NCBI GenBank assembly: GCA_038046605.1
Contig: JBBSVW010000055.1
Coordinates: forward strand, 1 to 36,963
DNA from: Candidatus Micrarchaeota archaeon
GTDB taxonomy: Archaea; Micrarchaeota; Micrarchaeia; Norongarragalinales; SBBD01
Length of the DNA: 36,963 bases
Reading direction: 5' to 3'
The notes under the pieces are model-generated. The model worked only from the letters and a program-made list of their open reading frames with translations. It had not been told where the DNA came from and did not search any database. Each line of letters starts with the position of its first letter. The stretch's first letter is position 1. The translations under genes were made by a program, and so were the position numbers. Shown here one piece after another: positions 6,543 to 24,957 of the stretch.

Positions 6543-6588
6543 TAGGATCCCACACCTTTTCACACGAATCGTATTTTAACATGCCGCT

Positions 6589-6690
6589 GACACCGCTAGG
6601 GGGATAAGTTTCCCCCTATCTCGCGTTTCGTAGAGTTTGCCTCTACTAATGTCCGAATTGCCCACCAATTCGTACATCGCCTCTAGCCCC
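6589..6690 (-). repeat. Expanded, degenerate copy of the GTAG-hairpin element
   Basis: Minus strand reads AAATAA-GGGGCTAGAGGCGATG...GTAGAGGCAAACTCTAC...TAGGGGGAAACTTATCCCCCTAGCGGTGTC; same ends as the copies at 21480 and 24887. Confidence 0.75.
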
Positions 6691-6858
6691 TTATTTTGCC
6701 CTCCGAAATCCATAATTGATGTGATTTGCCCTCGTAAATCAAATATGGGCAAAGACCCCTAACTGTTTATCTGATCCGTTTGAATGCTCAATTTGCCCTA
6801 ACTTGTTTTATTCGAATTATTCGCAAGCATTTTATATCAAGGAAGCGGAATTATATTG

Positions 6859-7894: not shown

Positions 7895-7966
7895 GCCTCC
7901 GTAGCTCAGTAGTAGAGCGTTTGTCTCGTAAACAAAAGGCCGCGAGTGCGATTCTCGCCGGGGGCT
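7895..7966 (+). tRNA. tRNA-Thr (CGT), no intron
   Basis: Acceptor GCCTCCG/CGGGGGC, D arm GCTC/GAGC, anticodon arm TTTGT-CT-CGT-AA-ACAAA, T arm GCGAG/CTCGC, discriminator U. Confidence 0.93.
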
Positions 7967-10184: not shown

Positions 10185-10347
10185 GGGTCCGTAGCTCAGC
10201 CTGGATAGAGCGTCTGCCTCCTAAGGACACAGCTTTTTCTTCCCAGAAGAAAAAGTAGTGTCGCTACAAAAAGAAGGGCATTTGGTTGCGAATCAAATGC
10301 CCATTGGAGAAAGTAGAAGGTCGAGGGTTCGAATCCCTCCGGATCCG
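10185..10347 (+). tRNA. tRNA-Arg (CCT) with an 88-nt intron at 37/38 (10224-10311)
   Basis: Acceptor GGGTCCG/CGGATCC, anticodon stem TCTGC/GTAGA, BHB central helix CTCC/GGAG with TAA and AAA bulges, T arm GAGGG-TTCGAAT-CCCTC. Confidence 0.93.
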
Positions 10348-11907: not shown

Positions 11908-12315
11908 TTAATCGATGTATTTAGGTACTGCAACGTATCTAGAAGTCACTGATAAATACGCAGCATATAGGCAATAAAGTAAAATTACCAATGACCCAAT
12001 AATGAACATTGCCCTTGCCCCTTCCAATAAGATTGAAATGTTATTCGATTCCATTGCGGAGCTTGCCAAATAATAACCAATTATGGACAAAACTAATCCA
12101 ATCGAATCCAAAATCATGGCAAATTTTGCATGCCTTTGTTGAAAAGGATTTCCAAATTTAAGCAATAAAAATGCGCCAATAAGTCCTAATAGAAATAGTC
12201 CAATTGTGCCAAATGTCGCTCCTATTGTGCTTGCTCCGACGTATGCCAATACTGCCCATTTAGTGTCTTCCTTAGGCTTAACTTTTCTTATTTCCAGGAA
12301 TGAGAACTTGAACAT
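11908..12315 (-). CDS. AT-rich membrane protein (DUF4870-like layout)
   Basis: WAVLAY, FQQRHAKFA and three hydrophobic segments. Confidence 0.6.
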   Translation of the reverse strand: MFKFSFLEIRKVKPKEDTKWAVLAYVGASTIGATFGTIGLFLLGLIGAFLLLKFGNPFQQRHAKFAMILDSIGLVLSIIGYYLASSAMESNNISILLEGARAMFIIGSLVILLYCLYAAYLSVTSRYVAVPKYID

Positions 12316-12390
12316 AATTGTCTAAACCATTAAGTTTAACCGATTAAATAGCTTTTCGTCCAGATCTATTTCAAAATAGGGATCTTAAAG

Positions 12391-12741
12391 CGCGGAGGGT
12401 GGGAATTTCGAGCATGTGCCGCCGTTACCCAATTTGATTTTCAAATCTAAATAAGGGGGTAGAGGCGACACACTAGAAGGGGTAAGGCAACACGTTAGGA
12501 GAAATCTTTCCCCTTGGTGTTGGGGATTATCCCCCTATAGGTGTCATTCGAACCCACGCAACGATTACTCGTTAACAGCTCTCAAGCCCGGAATTTCCGG
12601 GATATCGAACTTTTCCAGATAGCAGGCCTACGTACCTCGATTTCAGATTCTCAGATCAAAGAACTTTCTTTTTCTCGTAAAGGTCTTTTTCTTTTGAAAA
12701 GAAAAAGAGGTTTGCCGCCATAGCCACTAGGCGACCTCCGC
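12391..12741 (-). tRNA. tRNA-Ser (probably TGA) with multiple non-canonical introns: 29/30 (12712-12628), about 31-34 (39 nt, about 12623-12585) and 59/60 (12546-12405)
   Basis: Acceptor GCGGAGG/CCTCCGC with G73, D arm GCC/GGC, reconstructed anticodon arm GCAGC-CT-TGA-GA-GCTGT, long variable arm AACGA-GTAA-TCGTT, T arm GTGGG/CCCAC; clean TTCG/CGAA BHB for the T-loop intron. Confidence 0.8.
12455..12545 (+). mobile_element. GTAG-hairpin element inside the tRNA T-loop intron, with a nested degenerate copy (about 12479-12521)
   Basis: GGGGGTAGAGGCGACAC...[GGGGTAAGGCAACACGTTAGGAGAAATCTTTCCCCTTGGTGTT]GGGGATTATCCCCCTATAGGTGTC. Confidence 0.75.
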
Positions 12742-12855
12742 ATAAAAGAAGTTTTTATTGAAGGAGGATTATTAATCTAGCGGTATTTACAAATTCAACT
12801 ACAACATAACCCGCATGGATGGGGGGGATGCTGATTGGAAAAGCGTGATGCAATT

Positions 12856-20091: not shown

Positions 20092-21474
20092 ATGATAAAG
20101 GAATACCAGACAGTCAAGGAAATTTTCGGGCCAATCATGTTCGTCGAGGGGGTCGAAAACGCAGCCTACGGCGAACTTATCGAAGTCATCCTTCCCAATG
20201 GCGATAAGCGCAAGGGGCAGGTTCTCGAAACCTCCAAGGGCCTTGCGGCAATCCAGATTTTTGGGACCACCCAGGGGCTTGACACAAAGGAAACAAGGAT
20301 CCGCTTTTCCGGCGATGTGCTTCGTTTTCCCGTTTCCGATGAGATGTTTGGGCGCGTTTTCAACGGTTCGGGGGAGCCAATTGACAAGGGGGCGCCAATA
20401 ATTTCAAAGGAAAAGCGCGATATCACCGGCAATGCAATCAACCCCTATGCTAGGGCCGAACCCAACCAGTTCATCCAAACCGGCATTTCGACAATTGATG
20501 TGACAAATACCCTTGTTAGGGGGCAAAAGCTTCCGATATTTTCGGGAGCCGGTCTTCCGCATAATGAACTTGCAGTGCAGATCGCAAGGCAGGCAACCGT
20601 GCTTGGGGAAAAGGAGGATTTTACCGTTATTTTTGCCGCCATGGGAATAACCCACTCCGAAGCGAACTTTTTTATCCAGGATTTCGAAAAAACCGGCGCG
20701 CTTGAAAAGGCCATTTTGTTTTTGAATTTGGCAAACGACCCTTCAGTTGAAAGGCTCTTGACTCCAAGGCTTGCCTTAACCACTGCCGAATACCTCGCAT
20801 TTGAAAAAGACTACCAAGTGCTTGTTATTCTTACCGACATGACCATGTATTGCGACACCTTAAGGGAATTATCCGCTGCAAGGCAGGAAGTGCCAGGAAG
20901 GAGGGGCTATCCCGGCTACATGTACACAGATCTTTCCTCCATTTACGAGCGTGCGGGAAGGATCAAGGGCAAAAAAGGCTCCATCACCCAGCTTCCAATC
21001 CTCTCCATGCCGGATGATGATATCACGCATCCAATTCCTGACCTTACAGGCTACATTACGGAAGGCCAAATAGTGCTCTCCAGGGATATTTACCGCAAGG
21101 GAATTTATCCAAGCGTGGATGTGCTCCCTTCACTTAGCCGGCTCATGAATTCGGGACTTGGCGAGGGAAAAACGCGCGAGGACCACTCCGGAATCTCATC
21201 ACAGGTTTATGCCAGCTACGCGGAAGGAAGGGATCTTCGAAACCTAGTGGCGGTTGTGGGAGAGGAAGCATTAACCGAGCGCGACCGCAAATTCCTGCGC
21301 TTTGCCGACGCATTCGAGCAAAGGTTTGTGACGCAGGGAAAATACGAGAACCGGACAATCGGGCAATCACTCGAGCTTTGCTGGGAATTAGTAGCATCGC
21401 TGCCTGAAGAGGAATTAAAGAGGGTAAAGCCGGAGCACAAAGCGAAGTATGGCAAAAAATACCGCAAAGTCTAA
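20092..21474 (+). CDS. atpB: A/V-type ATP synthase subunit B
   Basis: [55 protein letters not shown]; start moved to ATG 20092. Confidence 0.97.
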
Positions 21475-21561
21475 TTAAAGGGGTAGAGGCGACACGAGTA
21501 GGGGGAGTATCCCCCTGGAGGTGTCGAGCACAAAGCGAAGTATGGCAAAAAATACCGCAAA
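21433..21561 (+). mobile_element. 57-bp GTAG-hairpin insertion (21469-21525) flanked by perfect 36-bp direct repeats (21433-21468, 21526-21561)
   Basis: GAGCACAAAGCGAAGTATGGCAAAAAATACCGCAAA on both sides of GTCTAATTAAAGGGGTAGAGGCGACACGAGTAGGGGGAGTATCCCCCTGGAGGTGTC. Confidence 0.85.
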
Positions 21562-22621: not shown

Positions 22622-23011
22622 ATGGCTAAAGAACCAACCGCTGAAATCGCAACTCCAAAAAAGAAGGAGGCCCCAAAAGCGCATGCAAAATCGACTAAAA
22701 AGAATGAGGAAATATATGCACCCCAAAAGCCAAGGGATGGCTGCGGGGATGTCCGCTGCCCAAGGCATGGGTCCCTAAAAACGCGTGGCCGGATTTTCGA
22801 AGGGAAAGTCGTCAGTGTGAAGGCTAAGAGGACTGCCGTTGTTGAATTGCAGTTCCTCCGCAAGGTTTCAAAATATGAACGGTTCGAAAAGCGCAAAAGC
22901 AAGCTTCACGTACACATCCCTGATTGCTATTCGCCCAAGGATGGGGACATCGTCAGGTTCATGGAATGCAGGAAGCTTTCCAAGACAAAAACATTCGTAA
23001 TTATCGATTAA
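22622..23011 (+). CDS. rps17: 30S ribosomal protein S17 (uS17)
   Basis: CPRHGSLKTRGRIFEGKVVS, KYERFEKR, ECRKLSKTK. Confidence 0.95.
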   Translation: MAKEPTAEIATPKKKEAPKAHAKSTKKNEEIYAPQKPRDGCGDVRCPRHGSLKTRGRIFEGKVVSVKAKRTAVVELQFLRKVSKYERFEKRKSKLHVHIPDCYSPKDGDIVRFMECRKLSKTKTFVIID

Positions 23012-23022
23012 GCTGAATTATT

Positions 23023-23181
23023 ATGAAAGATGAAAAGTTAGTTACAAAAAAAGAATTTTATGGAGGGATTGGAATATTGATGATTTTTCTTAGTTCGGCG
23101 CAACCTGAATTTTTTATGCGGATTGTTGCCCTCGTGATTGGAATTATTTTTATAATAATGGCAGCTACGATGAAGGATTGA
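23023..23181 (+). CDS. Small 52-aa two-helix membrane protein inside the ribosomal operon
   Basis: Hand translation MKDEKLVTKKEFYGGIGILMIFLSSAQPEFFMRIVALVIGIIFIIMAATMKD; fills the rps17-rpl14 gap. Confidence 0.6.
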   Translation: MKDEKLVTKKEFYGGIGILMIFLSSAQPEFFMRIVALVIGIIFIIMAATMKD

Positions 23182-23187
23182 TATTTT

Positions 23188-23583
23188 ATGCTAGGAGTAC
23201 CCGCAAGGATCACAAAAGCCCTCACAAGGGGAAGCAGGCTTATCGTTGATGATAATTCCGGCGCCAAAATTGTCGAGATCATCAGCATCATCGGGATTAA
23301 GGCAAGGCTTCGCAGGTATCCATCCGGCGGAGTTGGAAGCGTTATCCGTGTTGCAGTAAAGAAGGGAAAGCCCGACATGATCAAGAAAAAAGAGCTTGCA
23401 TTGATTGTGCGCCAAAAAAGGGAATTTAGGCGCGGAAAGGAGCGCGTTCGCTTTGAGGACAATGCGTGCGTATTAATTGACGATCAAAACCTTCCAAGGG
23501 GCACGGAAATCAAGGGCGCTGTTGCAAGGGAAATTTCCGAGAGATTCCCAAAGGTTGTTGCAATCGCAGCATCGGTAGTTTAA
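23188..23583 (+). CDS. rpl14: 50S ribosomal protein L14 (uL14)
   Basis: DDNSGAK, VKKGKP, IVRQK, FEDNACV, IKGAVARE. Confidence 0.96.
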   Translation: MLGVPARITKALTRGSRLIVDDNSGAKIVEIISIIGIKARLRRYPSGGVGSVIRVAVKKGKPDMIKKKELALIVRQKREFRRGKERVRFEDNACVLIDDQNLPRGTEIKGAVAREISERFPKVVAIAASVV

Positions 23584-24154: not shown

Positions 24155-24868
24155 ATGGCATTGAAAGGACACAACCGGCATTTGAAAAGGCTTGCAAGAA
24201 GCCCCATGCTCCCAATCCCCGCAAAGGGGGATCTTTGGCTTATCAAATCACAGGCGGGGGCGCACAAGAAGGACGAATCAATACCGCTGCTTGTGCTCAT
24301 GCGCGATCTTTTGAAAATCGTTGGCAATCTCAAGGAGGCAAAAAGGCTGCTTACATCCAGGGAAGTTTTGGTTGATGGTAAAATCAGGCGGGAGCCCGAT
24401 TTTGCAGTTGGCCTAATGGATATTGTTTCATTCCCCAAAATAAGGAAATTCTACCAGATTTTTACAATCAAGGGCAAGCTTCGCGTAATTCCGATTGATG
24501 AGAACGATGCCAAGCTAAAATCATGCCGCATCGTTGACAAAACGCCCATTACGGGCGGGAAAGTGCAGCTCAATTTGCACGATGGGAAGAACATTATAAT
24601 CGAAAAGGAGGAGGATAGGTTCAAGACCGGAGATACGGTTAGAATCACCATCCCGGGATACAAGGTTGATGCCTTCCTTAAGCTCGAAAAGGGATCAAAT
24701 TGCTACATTTACCGCGGCAAGCATTCCGGAACGCTTGGCACTCTCGAGCAAATCATTGAGCAGCCCGGCGGGCAGCCCTCGGATGCAAAGCTCAAGGTCG
24801 GAGGAGAGGAGCTAATCACAAGGAAGGATTATCTTTTTGCAGTTAGCAAGGAGTTCCACTTGGGTTAG
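24155..24868 (+). CDS. rps4e: 30S ribosomal protein S4e
   Basis: HLKRLA, SIPLLVLMRD, VDGKIR, VGLMD, QLNLHDG. Confidence 0.95.
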   Translation: MALKGHNRHLKRLARSPMLPIPAKGDLWLIKSQAGAHKKDESIPLLVLMRDLLKIVGNLKEAKRLLTSREVLVDGKIRREPDFAVGLMDIVSFPKIRKFYQIFTIKGKLRVIPIDENDAKLKSCRIVDKTPITGGKVQLNLHDGKNIIIEKEEDRFKTGDTVRITIPGYKVDAFLKLEKGSNCYIYRGKHSGTLGTLEQIIEQPGGQPSDAKLKVGGEELITRKDYLFAVSKEFHLG

Positions 24869-24957
24869 AATATGAATTGAAATAATGGGGTAGAGGCGAC
24901 ACGAGTAGGGGAAATATGTTCCCCTATAGGTGTCAAGGAGTTCCACTTGGGTTAGAA
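24848..24957 (+). mobile_element. 64-bp GTAG-hairpin insertion (24871-24934) flanked by perfect 23-bp direct repeats (24848-24870, 24935-24957)
   Basis: AAGGAGTTCCACTTGGGTTAGAA on both sides of TATGAATTGAAATAATGGGGTAGAGGCGACACGAGTAGGGGAAATATGTTCCCCTATAGGTGTC. Confidence 0.85.

Follow-up and report, generated by a model that had tools for sequence, protein, structure and literature searches.

The tRNA-Ser(GCT) gene on contig JBBSVW010000055.1 of a tiny groundwater Candidatus Micrarchaeota archaeon (DPANN; order Norongarragalinales; GenBank assembly GCA_038046605.1) is interrupted by three introns, and the body of the third, a 142-nt intron at tRNA position 59/60 in the T-loop, is a nested long-form member of a genus-wide hairpin repeat family. 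The window analyzed is this whole stretch of 36,963 nucleotides. With moderate confidence, we read the gene as a working one, in which the hairpin is a module of a pre-formed mobile T-loop cassette and not demonstrably the founding insertion of the intron. All three introns are predicted to be spliced by proteins. In the comparisons below, genomes carry G numbers and G000 is the source genome.

A tRNA-Ser(GCT) gene with a split T-arm

The gene is of class II, with the acceptor strands GCGGAGG/CCTCCGC, a 3-bp D-stem, G73, and a T-arm split as GTGGG-TTCGAA ... T-CCCAC. Removal of the three introns (Table 1) leaves an 85-nt RNA that ARAGORN identifies as tRNA-Ser(gct), with the cloverleaf and its 7-nt T-loop restored. 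Six Ser(GCT) genes are found in the genus, in G000, G002, G003, G004, G005, and G006. When the five congeneric orthologs are spliced by alignment, each of them also gives tRNA-Ser(gct) with a 7-nt T-loop, and their exons match at 76-82 of 85 positions; the introns of the six genes differ in length and sequence. Intron 1 belongs to the same family as the canonical introns of tRNA-Leu(TAA) and tRNA-Leu(CAA), and is entirely missing from the ortholog in G002.

AGC-CTGCTA is kept in all six genes, followed in each by a variable insert and then by A-GCTGT. Because the CTGCTA loop is conserved in all of them, the anticodon is GCT, with a canonical intron at 37/38. An earlier note on this DNA had named the gene Ser-TGA; the corresponding anticodon loop, CTTGAGA, is rejected, as it lies inside intron 2 and the orthologs conserve CTGCTA.

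The conserved exons, the valid Ser(GCT) product of every ortholog, and the divergent introns together indicate, at the level of sequence, that the gene is under selection and not a wreck. The earlier note had regarded an intact gene elsewhere as the mark of a pseudogene; a BLAST search of the 90.7%-complete assembly with the exons finds them nowhere else. On the raw window, both ARAGORN and Rfam miss the gene, and a permissive Rfam scan of 12300-12800 gives chance-level matches only. A DNA run from a second sample contains 12377-12603 unchanged.

The position and length that the earlier note gave for the third intron hold, and its removal is predicted to yield the T-arm GTGGG-TTCGAAT-CCCAC, with the spliced junction GGGUUCGAAUCCCAC, or ...GGGUUCGAA|UCCCAC... 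as RNA. Blind enumeration of bulge-helix-bulge (BHB)-like pairs in the gene gives too many candidates without guidance from the orthologs. The outer helix of the splice motif is the 5-bp T-stem, and the central helix, TTCG/CGAA, forms four Watson-Crick pairs in the required register, with the bulge sequences AA|T at the 5' site and AT|T at the 3' site. The inner helix closing the 5' bulge has 1 bp only. The minimum-energy fold of the T-arm and intron (-60.8 kcal/mol, z = -5.15; reached by 0 of 200 shuffles) retains the T-stem and the AUU bulge as well as a 5-bp UUCGA/UCGAA helix. As modeled, the motif fits the relaxed bulge-helix-loop (hBH/BHL) kind and not a clean hBHBh' motif. Thus, the helix, the 3' bulge, and the bulge sequences described in the earlier note are present, while the 1-bp inner helix and the open 5' site do not bear out its description of a clean BHB.

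The central helix can be followed in other tRNA genes of the genome. A scan for split T-arms returns 378 rows in a looser, noisy version and 21 candidates in a tightened one. Five of the 21 are judged by eye to be non-tRNA (on C13, C32, C61, and the plus strands of C73 and C75), and the C57 row is left out because the tRNA there is intact, with a cassette and a second copy of its 3' end behind it, so that 15 genes are counted; C70 and C26 (near 14.7 kb) hold two more candidates outside this set. In the 15 T-loop introns, all four central-helix positions are paired in eight, compared with 0 of 90 shifted registers, and the mean number of pairs is 3.33 compared with 1.71 in the shifted-register controls. 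The first base of the intron strand is C in three of five G57 loops and in none of ten A57 loops, six of which have T. This covariation indicates that the helix is real and selected. Where the loop reads TTCAAAT, the matching intron strand is TGAA or TGGA, a complement rather than a copy. The 3' bulge is AAT, identical to T-loop positions 58-60, in 10 of the 15.

With its intron search on, ARAGORN reports no more than 21 tRNA genes for the 1.64-Mb genome, because most tRNA genes are interrupted by T-loop introns, which hide at least 15 further ones. As a practical warning, tRNA gene finding by ARAGORN is incomplete where T-loops are interrupted.

The genome encodes, at C20 292-1458, a 388-residue EndA that matches PDB 4FZ2 over residues 14-388 (E 3.5e-126) and has two Pfam tRNA_int_endo domains and an N-terminal domain. 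4FZ2 is the epsilon2 EndA of ARMAN-2, according to the available text of PMC3488258, and the ARMAN-2 enzyme cleaved, in vitro, a relaxed intron at 59/60 of tRNA-Cys, according to that of PMC3239211. By its match to ARMAN-2 EndA, the protein encoded here is probably able to cut relaxed motifs. In the mechanism that we propose, a three-unit (epsilon2-type) endonuclease would cut the relaxed bulge-helix-loop motif, with the T-stem as outer helix, UUCG(A) paired with (U)CGAA at the intron 3' end, and AU|U as the 3' bulge; the 5' cut would fall after A59, in the open junction.

The hairpin element and its copies

The intron body matches contig C89 over 101 nt at 89% (BLAST, E 3.5e-24), along with many shorter matches. 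An nhmmer profile built from seven short copies finds 54 matches in the genome at E <= 0.01 and matches both ends of the intron body, in agreement with the earlier note that the intron is built largely from the hairpin element. The element is a structured, non-coding hairpin repeat of about 55 nt, with the unit (Y)GACAC - C..AGGGGG-loop-CCCCCT.. - GTGTCG - CCTCTACCCCC-TTATTT, often followed by ..TGCGAATCAAAT.., and the intron copy is a long form. Its helix P1, present in 29 of 33 copies, shows compensatory pairs: CGACA/TGTCG (10), TGACA/TGTCG (7), CAACA/TGTTG (4), CAACC/GGTTG (4), TAACA/TGTTG (3), and CGACA/TGTTG (1). Because the leading Y belongs to P1, the element starts at intron nucleotide 1; the earlier note had placed its end 1 nt from the 5' splice site, leaving out the Y-G pair.

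In the intron, an inner element unit is nested within an outer copy. Contigs of other copies skip 12472..12521. The nested long form also occurs on C89, C26, and C52 and therefore represents a propagated subfamily, not an event unique to the Ser intron. In the fold, GGCGGCACA of the intron tail pairs with the element's UGUGUCGCC.

Dispersed copies have a fixed 5' end, (Y)GACAC, and a variable 3' end. Exact direct repeats of 17-36 nt flank 8 of the 33 full-length copies examined, and some repeats appear longer with mismatches. Long, variable target duplications, such as those of 22 and 36 nt in the window, are unusual for small elements. Among 46 5'-complete copies, six are located at a T-loop or at most a few bases from the 3' end of a tRNA, compared with about 0.3% of positions by a rough background estimate.

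Table 1 Features of the tRNA-Ser(GCT) gene and copies of the hairpin element in the window
Feature	Position	Strand	Remarks
tRNA-Ser(GCT) gene, 351 nt	12391..12741	-	four exons and three introns; ARAGORN on spliced product, orthologs
Exon 1, tRNA positions 1-29	12713..12741	-	
Intron 1, 85 nt, at 29/30	12628..12712	-	BHB candidate, inner helix ACCTC/GAGGT
Exon 2, positions 30-37	12620..12627	-	anticodon GCT
Intron 2, 39 nt, canonical 37/38	12581..12619	-	contains CTTGAGA
Exon 3, positions 38-59	12547..12580	-	anticodon stem 3' strand, variable arm AACGA-GTAA-TCGTT, T-stem 5' strand, TTCGAA
Intron 3, 142 nt, at 59/60	12405..12546	-	between A59 and U60
5' part of outer element copy	12522..12546	-	TGACACC...CCCC, from intron nucleotide 1
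Inner element unit	12477..12521	-	nested in outer hairpin, long-form subfamily
3' arm of outer copy	12449..12476	-	CTAGTGTGTCGCCTCTACCCCCTTATTT
3' extension	12428..12448	-	AGATTTGAAAATCAAATTGGG; module also following many dispersed copies
Intron tail	12411..12427	-	TAACGGCGGCACATGCT
Central helix 3' strand and AT of 3' bulge	12405..12410	-	CGAA + AT
Exon 4	12391..12404	-	U60, T-stem 3' strand, acceptor 3' strand, G73
Short-form copy	24849..24957	-	exact 22-nt direct repeats 24849-24870, 24936-24957
Short-form copy	21433..21561	-	exact 36-nt direct repeats 21433-21468, 21526-21561
Long-form copy	6588..6700	+	different internal insert

A 16-mer of the element 3' arm is found in 83 stretches of GTDB species genomes, mostly as single chance matches in unrelated bacteria; by our arithmetic, a 16-mer is expected hundreds of times by chance in 596 Gb. 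The genomes with multiple matches are Candidatus Micrarchaeota and Norongarragalinales metagenome-assembled genomes. IMG/VR gives three matches, two of them without the hairpin. On one IMG/VR contig (L157, 10650-10740), CGACAC...GTGTCGCCTCTACCCCC is found with a P1-like helix and a degenerate inner hairpin, and could represent a member of the family carried by a virus or lying on a contig that is misfiled. A second hairpin variant, TGTCTGCGGCGGGGG..CCCCC..GCAGAC, begins T-loop introns on C23 (55708-55985) and C79 (12788-12516) of G000; it has the architecture of the GACAC element with other paired bases, and the orthologous tRNA-Met of G001 has the GACAC variant at that place.

As to a mobilizing enzyme, no RVT_1 domain, no Phage_integrase domain, and no tyrosine recombinase are found in the 90.7%-complete assembly. 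It contains one Y1_Tnp gene (C9, 24297-24650), which is a candidate only, with no demonstrated link to the element. An insertion of the IS200/IS605 or REP type leaves no target duplication, and here long duplications flank the copies.

Origin of the T-loop intron

The hairpin begins exactly at the first nucleotide of the intron in five or more different tRNAs: Ser, Gly, and probably Asp of G000, Met of G001, and Asn of G003. Only three tRNAs of G000 carry it at the T-loop. The probable tRNA-Asp on C26 has the same hairpin subfamily (92% over 63 nt), as do tRNA-Met of G001 and tRNA-Asn of G003. Of 68 genomes in the order, three contain the junction GGTTCRAAWGACAC, and all three belong to this genus.

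In tRNA-Gly(GCC), on C31, the 81-nt T-loop intron of G000 is the hairpin with a short tail, and its motif is perfect (CCGGG/CCCGG, TTCA/TGAA, GACAC/GTGTC). Comparison of eight orthologs, G000 included, shows an uninterrupted T-arm in five (G003, G005, G006, G007, and G008), among them the close relative G005, which indicates at least one recent gain of an intron made of the hairpin. G001 has an unrelated 32-nt intron, and G002 has a large intron of the palindromic-module kind; three unrelated introns thus represent independent gains at this T-loop site. No flank duplicate is found at the G000 intron, and the sequence suggests that it arrived ready-made.

In tRNA-Pro(TGG), an exact GTTCAAA repeat stands on either side of the 59/60 intron in G000 and G001. 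Among the orthologs, those of G002, G005, and G006 have an intron at 53/54, that of G003 has introns at both positions, and that of G004 has one of 20 nt at 59/60. The G003 gene (L043, on its contig C1), with T-arm introns at 53/54 and 59/60, resembles tRNA-Pro(GGG) of ARMAN-2 as it appears in the available text of PMC3239211.

On C26, C57, and C9, an intact tRNA is succeeded by a cassette and then by a duplicate that runs from the T-loop to the tRNA 3' end. On C57 (9932-10246), the tRNA is an intact Pro(CGG), the composite cassette is 140 nt long, and the duplicate is 21 nt. On C9 (about 22980-23200; L154 150-480, minus strand), the tRNA 3' end is followed by CTC, a composite cassette made of the hairpin and a GGGGCAAGGCG-ended module, and a near-exact duplicate (TTAAAATCCGGGCTGGCCCA) that reads TTAAAAT. 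A 277-residue open reading frame lies just upstream of this cassette, and an IS200-type Y1 transposase gene lies about 1.1 kb away. In another genus, tRNA-Pro(CGG) of G007 (L050, contig C3) has a 41-nt unrelated hairpin insert behind the tRNA, followed by an 18-nt duplicate of its 3' end.

At the Ser(GCT) site, all six genes of the genus have a 59/60 intron, and none of four in other genera of the family does. Outside the genus, G007-G010 (the other genera of the family), G019, G020, G024, and G040 have an intact T-arm, and G031 has an unrelated 57-nt T-loop intron. None of the five congeneric orthologs has an empty T-loop. Three of the six introns are of the hairpin type (G000, G003, and G006). 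The other three (G002, G004, and G005) belong to a second module family, GCCTTGCC(CC)TTTCTTT...AAAGAAAG..., with the palindrome GCCTTGCC...GGCAAGGC. The earlier note held that orthologous introns that lack the element and predate it would refute an origin by insertion: half of the introns indeed lack the hairpin, while either type may be the older.

The module of G005 matches a paralog in its own genome best (90%, compared with 85-86% for the Ser orthologs) and therefore belongs to a mobile multi-copy family. GCCTTGC...GCAAGGC pairs occur at 13 loci, five of them with TTTCTTT modules, all at T-loops; no dispersed TTTCTTT module is found elsewhere among the 13. A SecY tree places G000 (hairpin), G005 (other module), and G001 in one clade with support 100/99. 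With G000 grouped with G005, the intron body must have changed at least twice. The 10-mer GGCGGCACAT is common to the tails of G000 and G003, so at least these two introns are homologous. The intron 2 alleles group G000 with G004 and G003 with G005, in conflict with the SecY tree, which suggests recombination.

From these comparisons, we infer that an intron has stood at the 59/60 site of Ser(GCT) from roughly the base of the genus onward. The intron body would later have been exchanged between two kinds of mobile modules, the hairpin family and the palindromic GCCTTGCC...GGCAAGGC family, with recombination between T-loop cassettes as the probable means. The strand CGAA would be the selected complement of the T-loop and not a relic of target duplication.

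The earlier note had seen a decayed duplicate of the flank at the other intron end. The last 32 nt of the intron and the 31 nt upstream of the 5' site align with a local score of 10 (shuffle mean 9.3-10.6), which is indistinguishable from chance (p = 0.70, or 0.47 without the last 8 nt; 5000 shuffles). CGAA is the strand that pairing with TTCG calls for. Nor would duplication of the palindrome, which had been proposed to create the BHB helix, give the two 3-nt bulges, since a perfect TTCGAAT duplicate would form a continuous 6-bp helix with one bulged base.

An insertion of the hairpin element, alone or within a composite cassette, into the intact Ser(GCT) T-loop of the genus ancestor, with later mutation of the T-loop duplicate to CGAA, is therefore unlikely on our assessment, although the family offers much that fits it. 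The first base of the element is intron nucleotide 1, the family makes target duplications and favors tRNA T-loops and 3' ends, the Pro(TGG) intron has its exact duplicate, and the Gly(GCC) hairpin intron is missing from most orthologs. In addition, the duplicates at the three tRNA-end insertions start in the T-loop, with TTAAAAT only one step from TGAAAAT, and the 3' bulge repeats T-loop positions 58-60 in most T-loop introns. At the Ser locus, however, the tail resembles the flank at chance level, CGAAAU is separated from a TTCGAAT duplicate by several indels, and three orthologs do without the hairpin; the recent Gly(GCC) intron, perfect in motif and without a flank duplicate, suggests that ready-made introns move. 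The proposal of the earlier note that element insertion founds introns thus keeps circumstantial support from Gly(GCC) and Pro(TGG), while the Ser locus provides neither a trace of duplication nor an empty congeneric site. Judging from the sequences, insertion with T-loop duplication and subsequent tuning of the helix is a plausible live route for the family, of which Ser(GCT) gives no such trace.

The reverse direction, in which an excised T-loop intron RNA or a DNA copy of it seeds the dispersed hairpins, is improbable. Target-primed copying, as known from LINEs and SINEs, leaves variable-length target duplications. The duplications here resemble such products, the dispersed copies combine a fixed 5' end with variable 3' ends, and the fixed end falls right on the 5' splice site. 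Against this, RVT_1 is not found in the assembly, most of the 54 matches lie outside tRNA genes while three tRNAs of G000 have the hairpin at the T-loop, and the direction of copying is not readable from sequence alone. It is hardly credible that the element disrupted a dead tRNA gene and is left unspliced. The RNA data do not cover the gene, and the 5' site lies outside a canonical bulge, as such a reading would have it, but the exons are 89-96% identical across the six genomes while the introns diverge, all six genes give a valid Ser(GCT), the assembly has no other exon copy, and this T-loop arrangement, covarying helix included, recurs in at least 15 tRNA genes.

A working gene with the hairpin as a cassette module is the reading that we retain, and several points weigh against it. 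The SecY tree is built from a single protein and resolves three of the seven genomes of the genus, and either the hairpin or the other module may have come first at the Ser(GCT) site. Gains at the T-loop site are evidently common, so that occupation in six of six genes need not reflect a single ancient gain. The presence of the hairpin at nucleotide 1 in at least five tRNAs is what a founding insertion is expected to produce. As for splicing, the minimum-energy fold places the 5' site within a 7-nt single strand of a three-way junction, where cleavage is inferred by analogy with ARMAN-2, and the sole RNA run (metatranscriptome X6) gives a contig at 12776-13001 only, outside the gene.

Relation to known systems and flanking features

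The closest known case is ARMAN-2 (Candidatus Micrarchaeum acidiphilum), which has a pre-tRNA-Cys(GCA) intron at 59/60, pre-tRNA-Pro(GGG) introns at 53/54 and 59/60, and an epsilon2 EndA, according to the available text of PMC3239211. Phylum, intron position, relaxed bulge-helix-loop motif, and endonuclease architecture are the same, as far as the accessible parts of PMC3239211 and PMC3488258 describe them. The Cys intron of ARMAN-2 is 13 nt long, in contrast to the 142 nt of dispersed repeat here, and the intron account in the available text of PMC3239211 makes no mention of a link to repeats.

As in the Thermoproteales, near-identical introns occupy different tRNAs here (Ser, Gly, probably Asp, Met, and Asn). 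Transposed tRNA introns of the Thermoproteales were reportedly described by Fujishima et al. in 2010 (Mol Biol Evol). A 2014 review, in its available text, reports similar intron families in different tRNAs of this group, and states that the mechanism by which introns transpose is unknown and thought to act at the DNA level (PMC4090602). Unlike the Thermoproteales introns as the accessible part of that review presents them, the sequence described here also lies outside tRNA genes, with long target duplications.

A mobile-element route to tRNA intron gain has been proposed for Caldiarchaeum (PMC3293823). Here, too, the general proposal is that a mobile element can create a tRNA intron, and direct repeats of the tRNA end stand at the borders (on C26, C57, and C9), but the Caldiarchaeum model has a gene-carrying element, a recombinase, and att-type recombination, whereas the element here is about 55-140 nt long and encodes no protein. 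Small non-autonomous hairpin repeats of prokaryotes include REP/BIME, miniature inverted-repeat transposable elements (MITEs), and the Rickettsia palindromic elements, and the insertion sequences of the IS1634 group make long, variable target duplications. The element is short, structured, multi-copy, and non-coding like the former, and makes long variable duplications like the latter. It differs from these systems in having no terminal inverted repeats, in its preference for T-loops and tRNA 3' ends, and in a 5' end that doubles as a splice site. Full-text searches of the literature, supplements aside, find no description of this repeat family or of an intron body that doubles as a dispersed, duplication-flanked repeat.

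The T-loop intron bodies of the genus thus consist of short structured repeats whose copies at other loci are bracketed by target duplications and gather around tRNA ends, and for Gly(GCC) and Pro(TGG) the presence of T-loop introns differs between close relatives. This links mobile DNA to tRNA introns; a jump as the creator of the intron is plausible for the family and unsupported at the Ser(GCT) locus. Offering alleles with and without the intron, together with an element and an endonuclease that are both defined, the genus provides a testable system for archaeal tRNA intron gain. How tRNA introns arrive "remains open", in the words of a 2026 preprint on Asgard archaea as far as its text is available. 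Tentatively, and with more doubt than confidence, the hairpins and composite cassettes may constitute a new, tiny, non-coding mobile element of Micrarchaeota that targets the loops of hairpins, most of all the T-loop and the 3' end of tRNAs, and duplicates target stretches of varying length; a duplication confined to the T-loop would leave a ready-made, or nearly ready-made, BHB intron. If true, the element would be the long-sought vehicle that brings about, at the DNA level, tRNA intron gain and "intron transposition" in archaea.

In a contig of another DNA run (X5), 12388 is joined to 11790 through 32 other letters, so that a related strain differs in sequence downstream of the tRNA-Ser(GCT) gene. 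Elsewhere on the plus strand of the window, a 163-nt Rfam tRNA match (10185-10347) implies an intron, and Rfam also identifies an uninterrupted tRNA-Thr(CGT) at 7895-7966.

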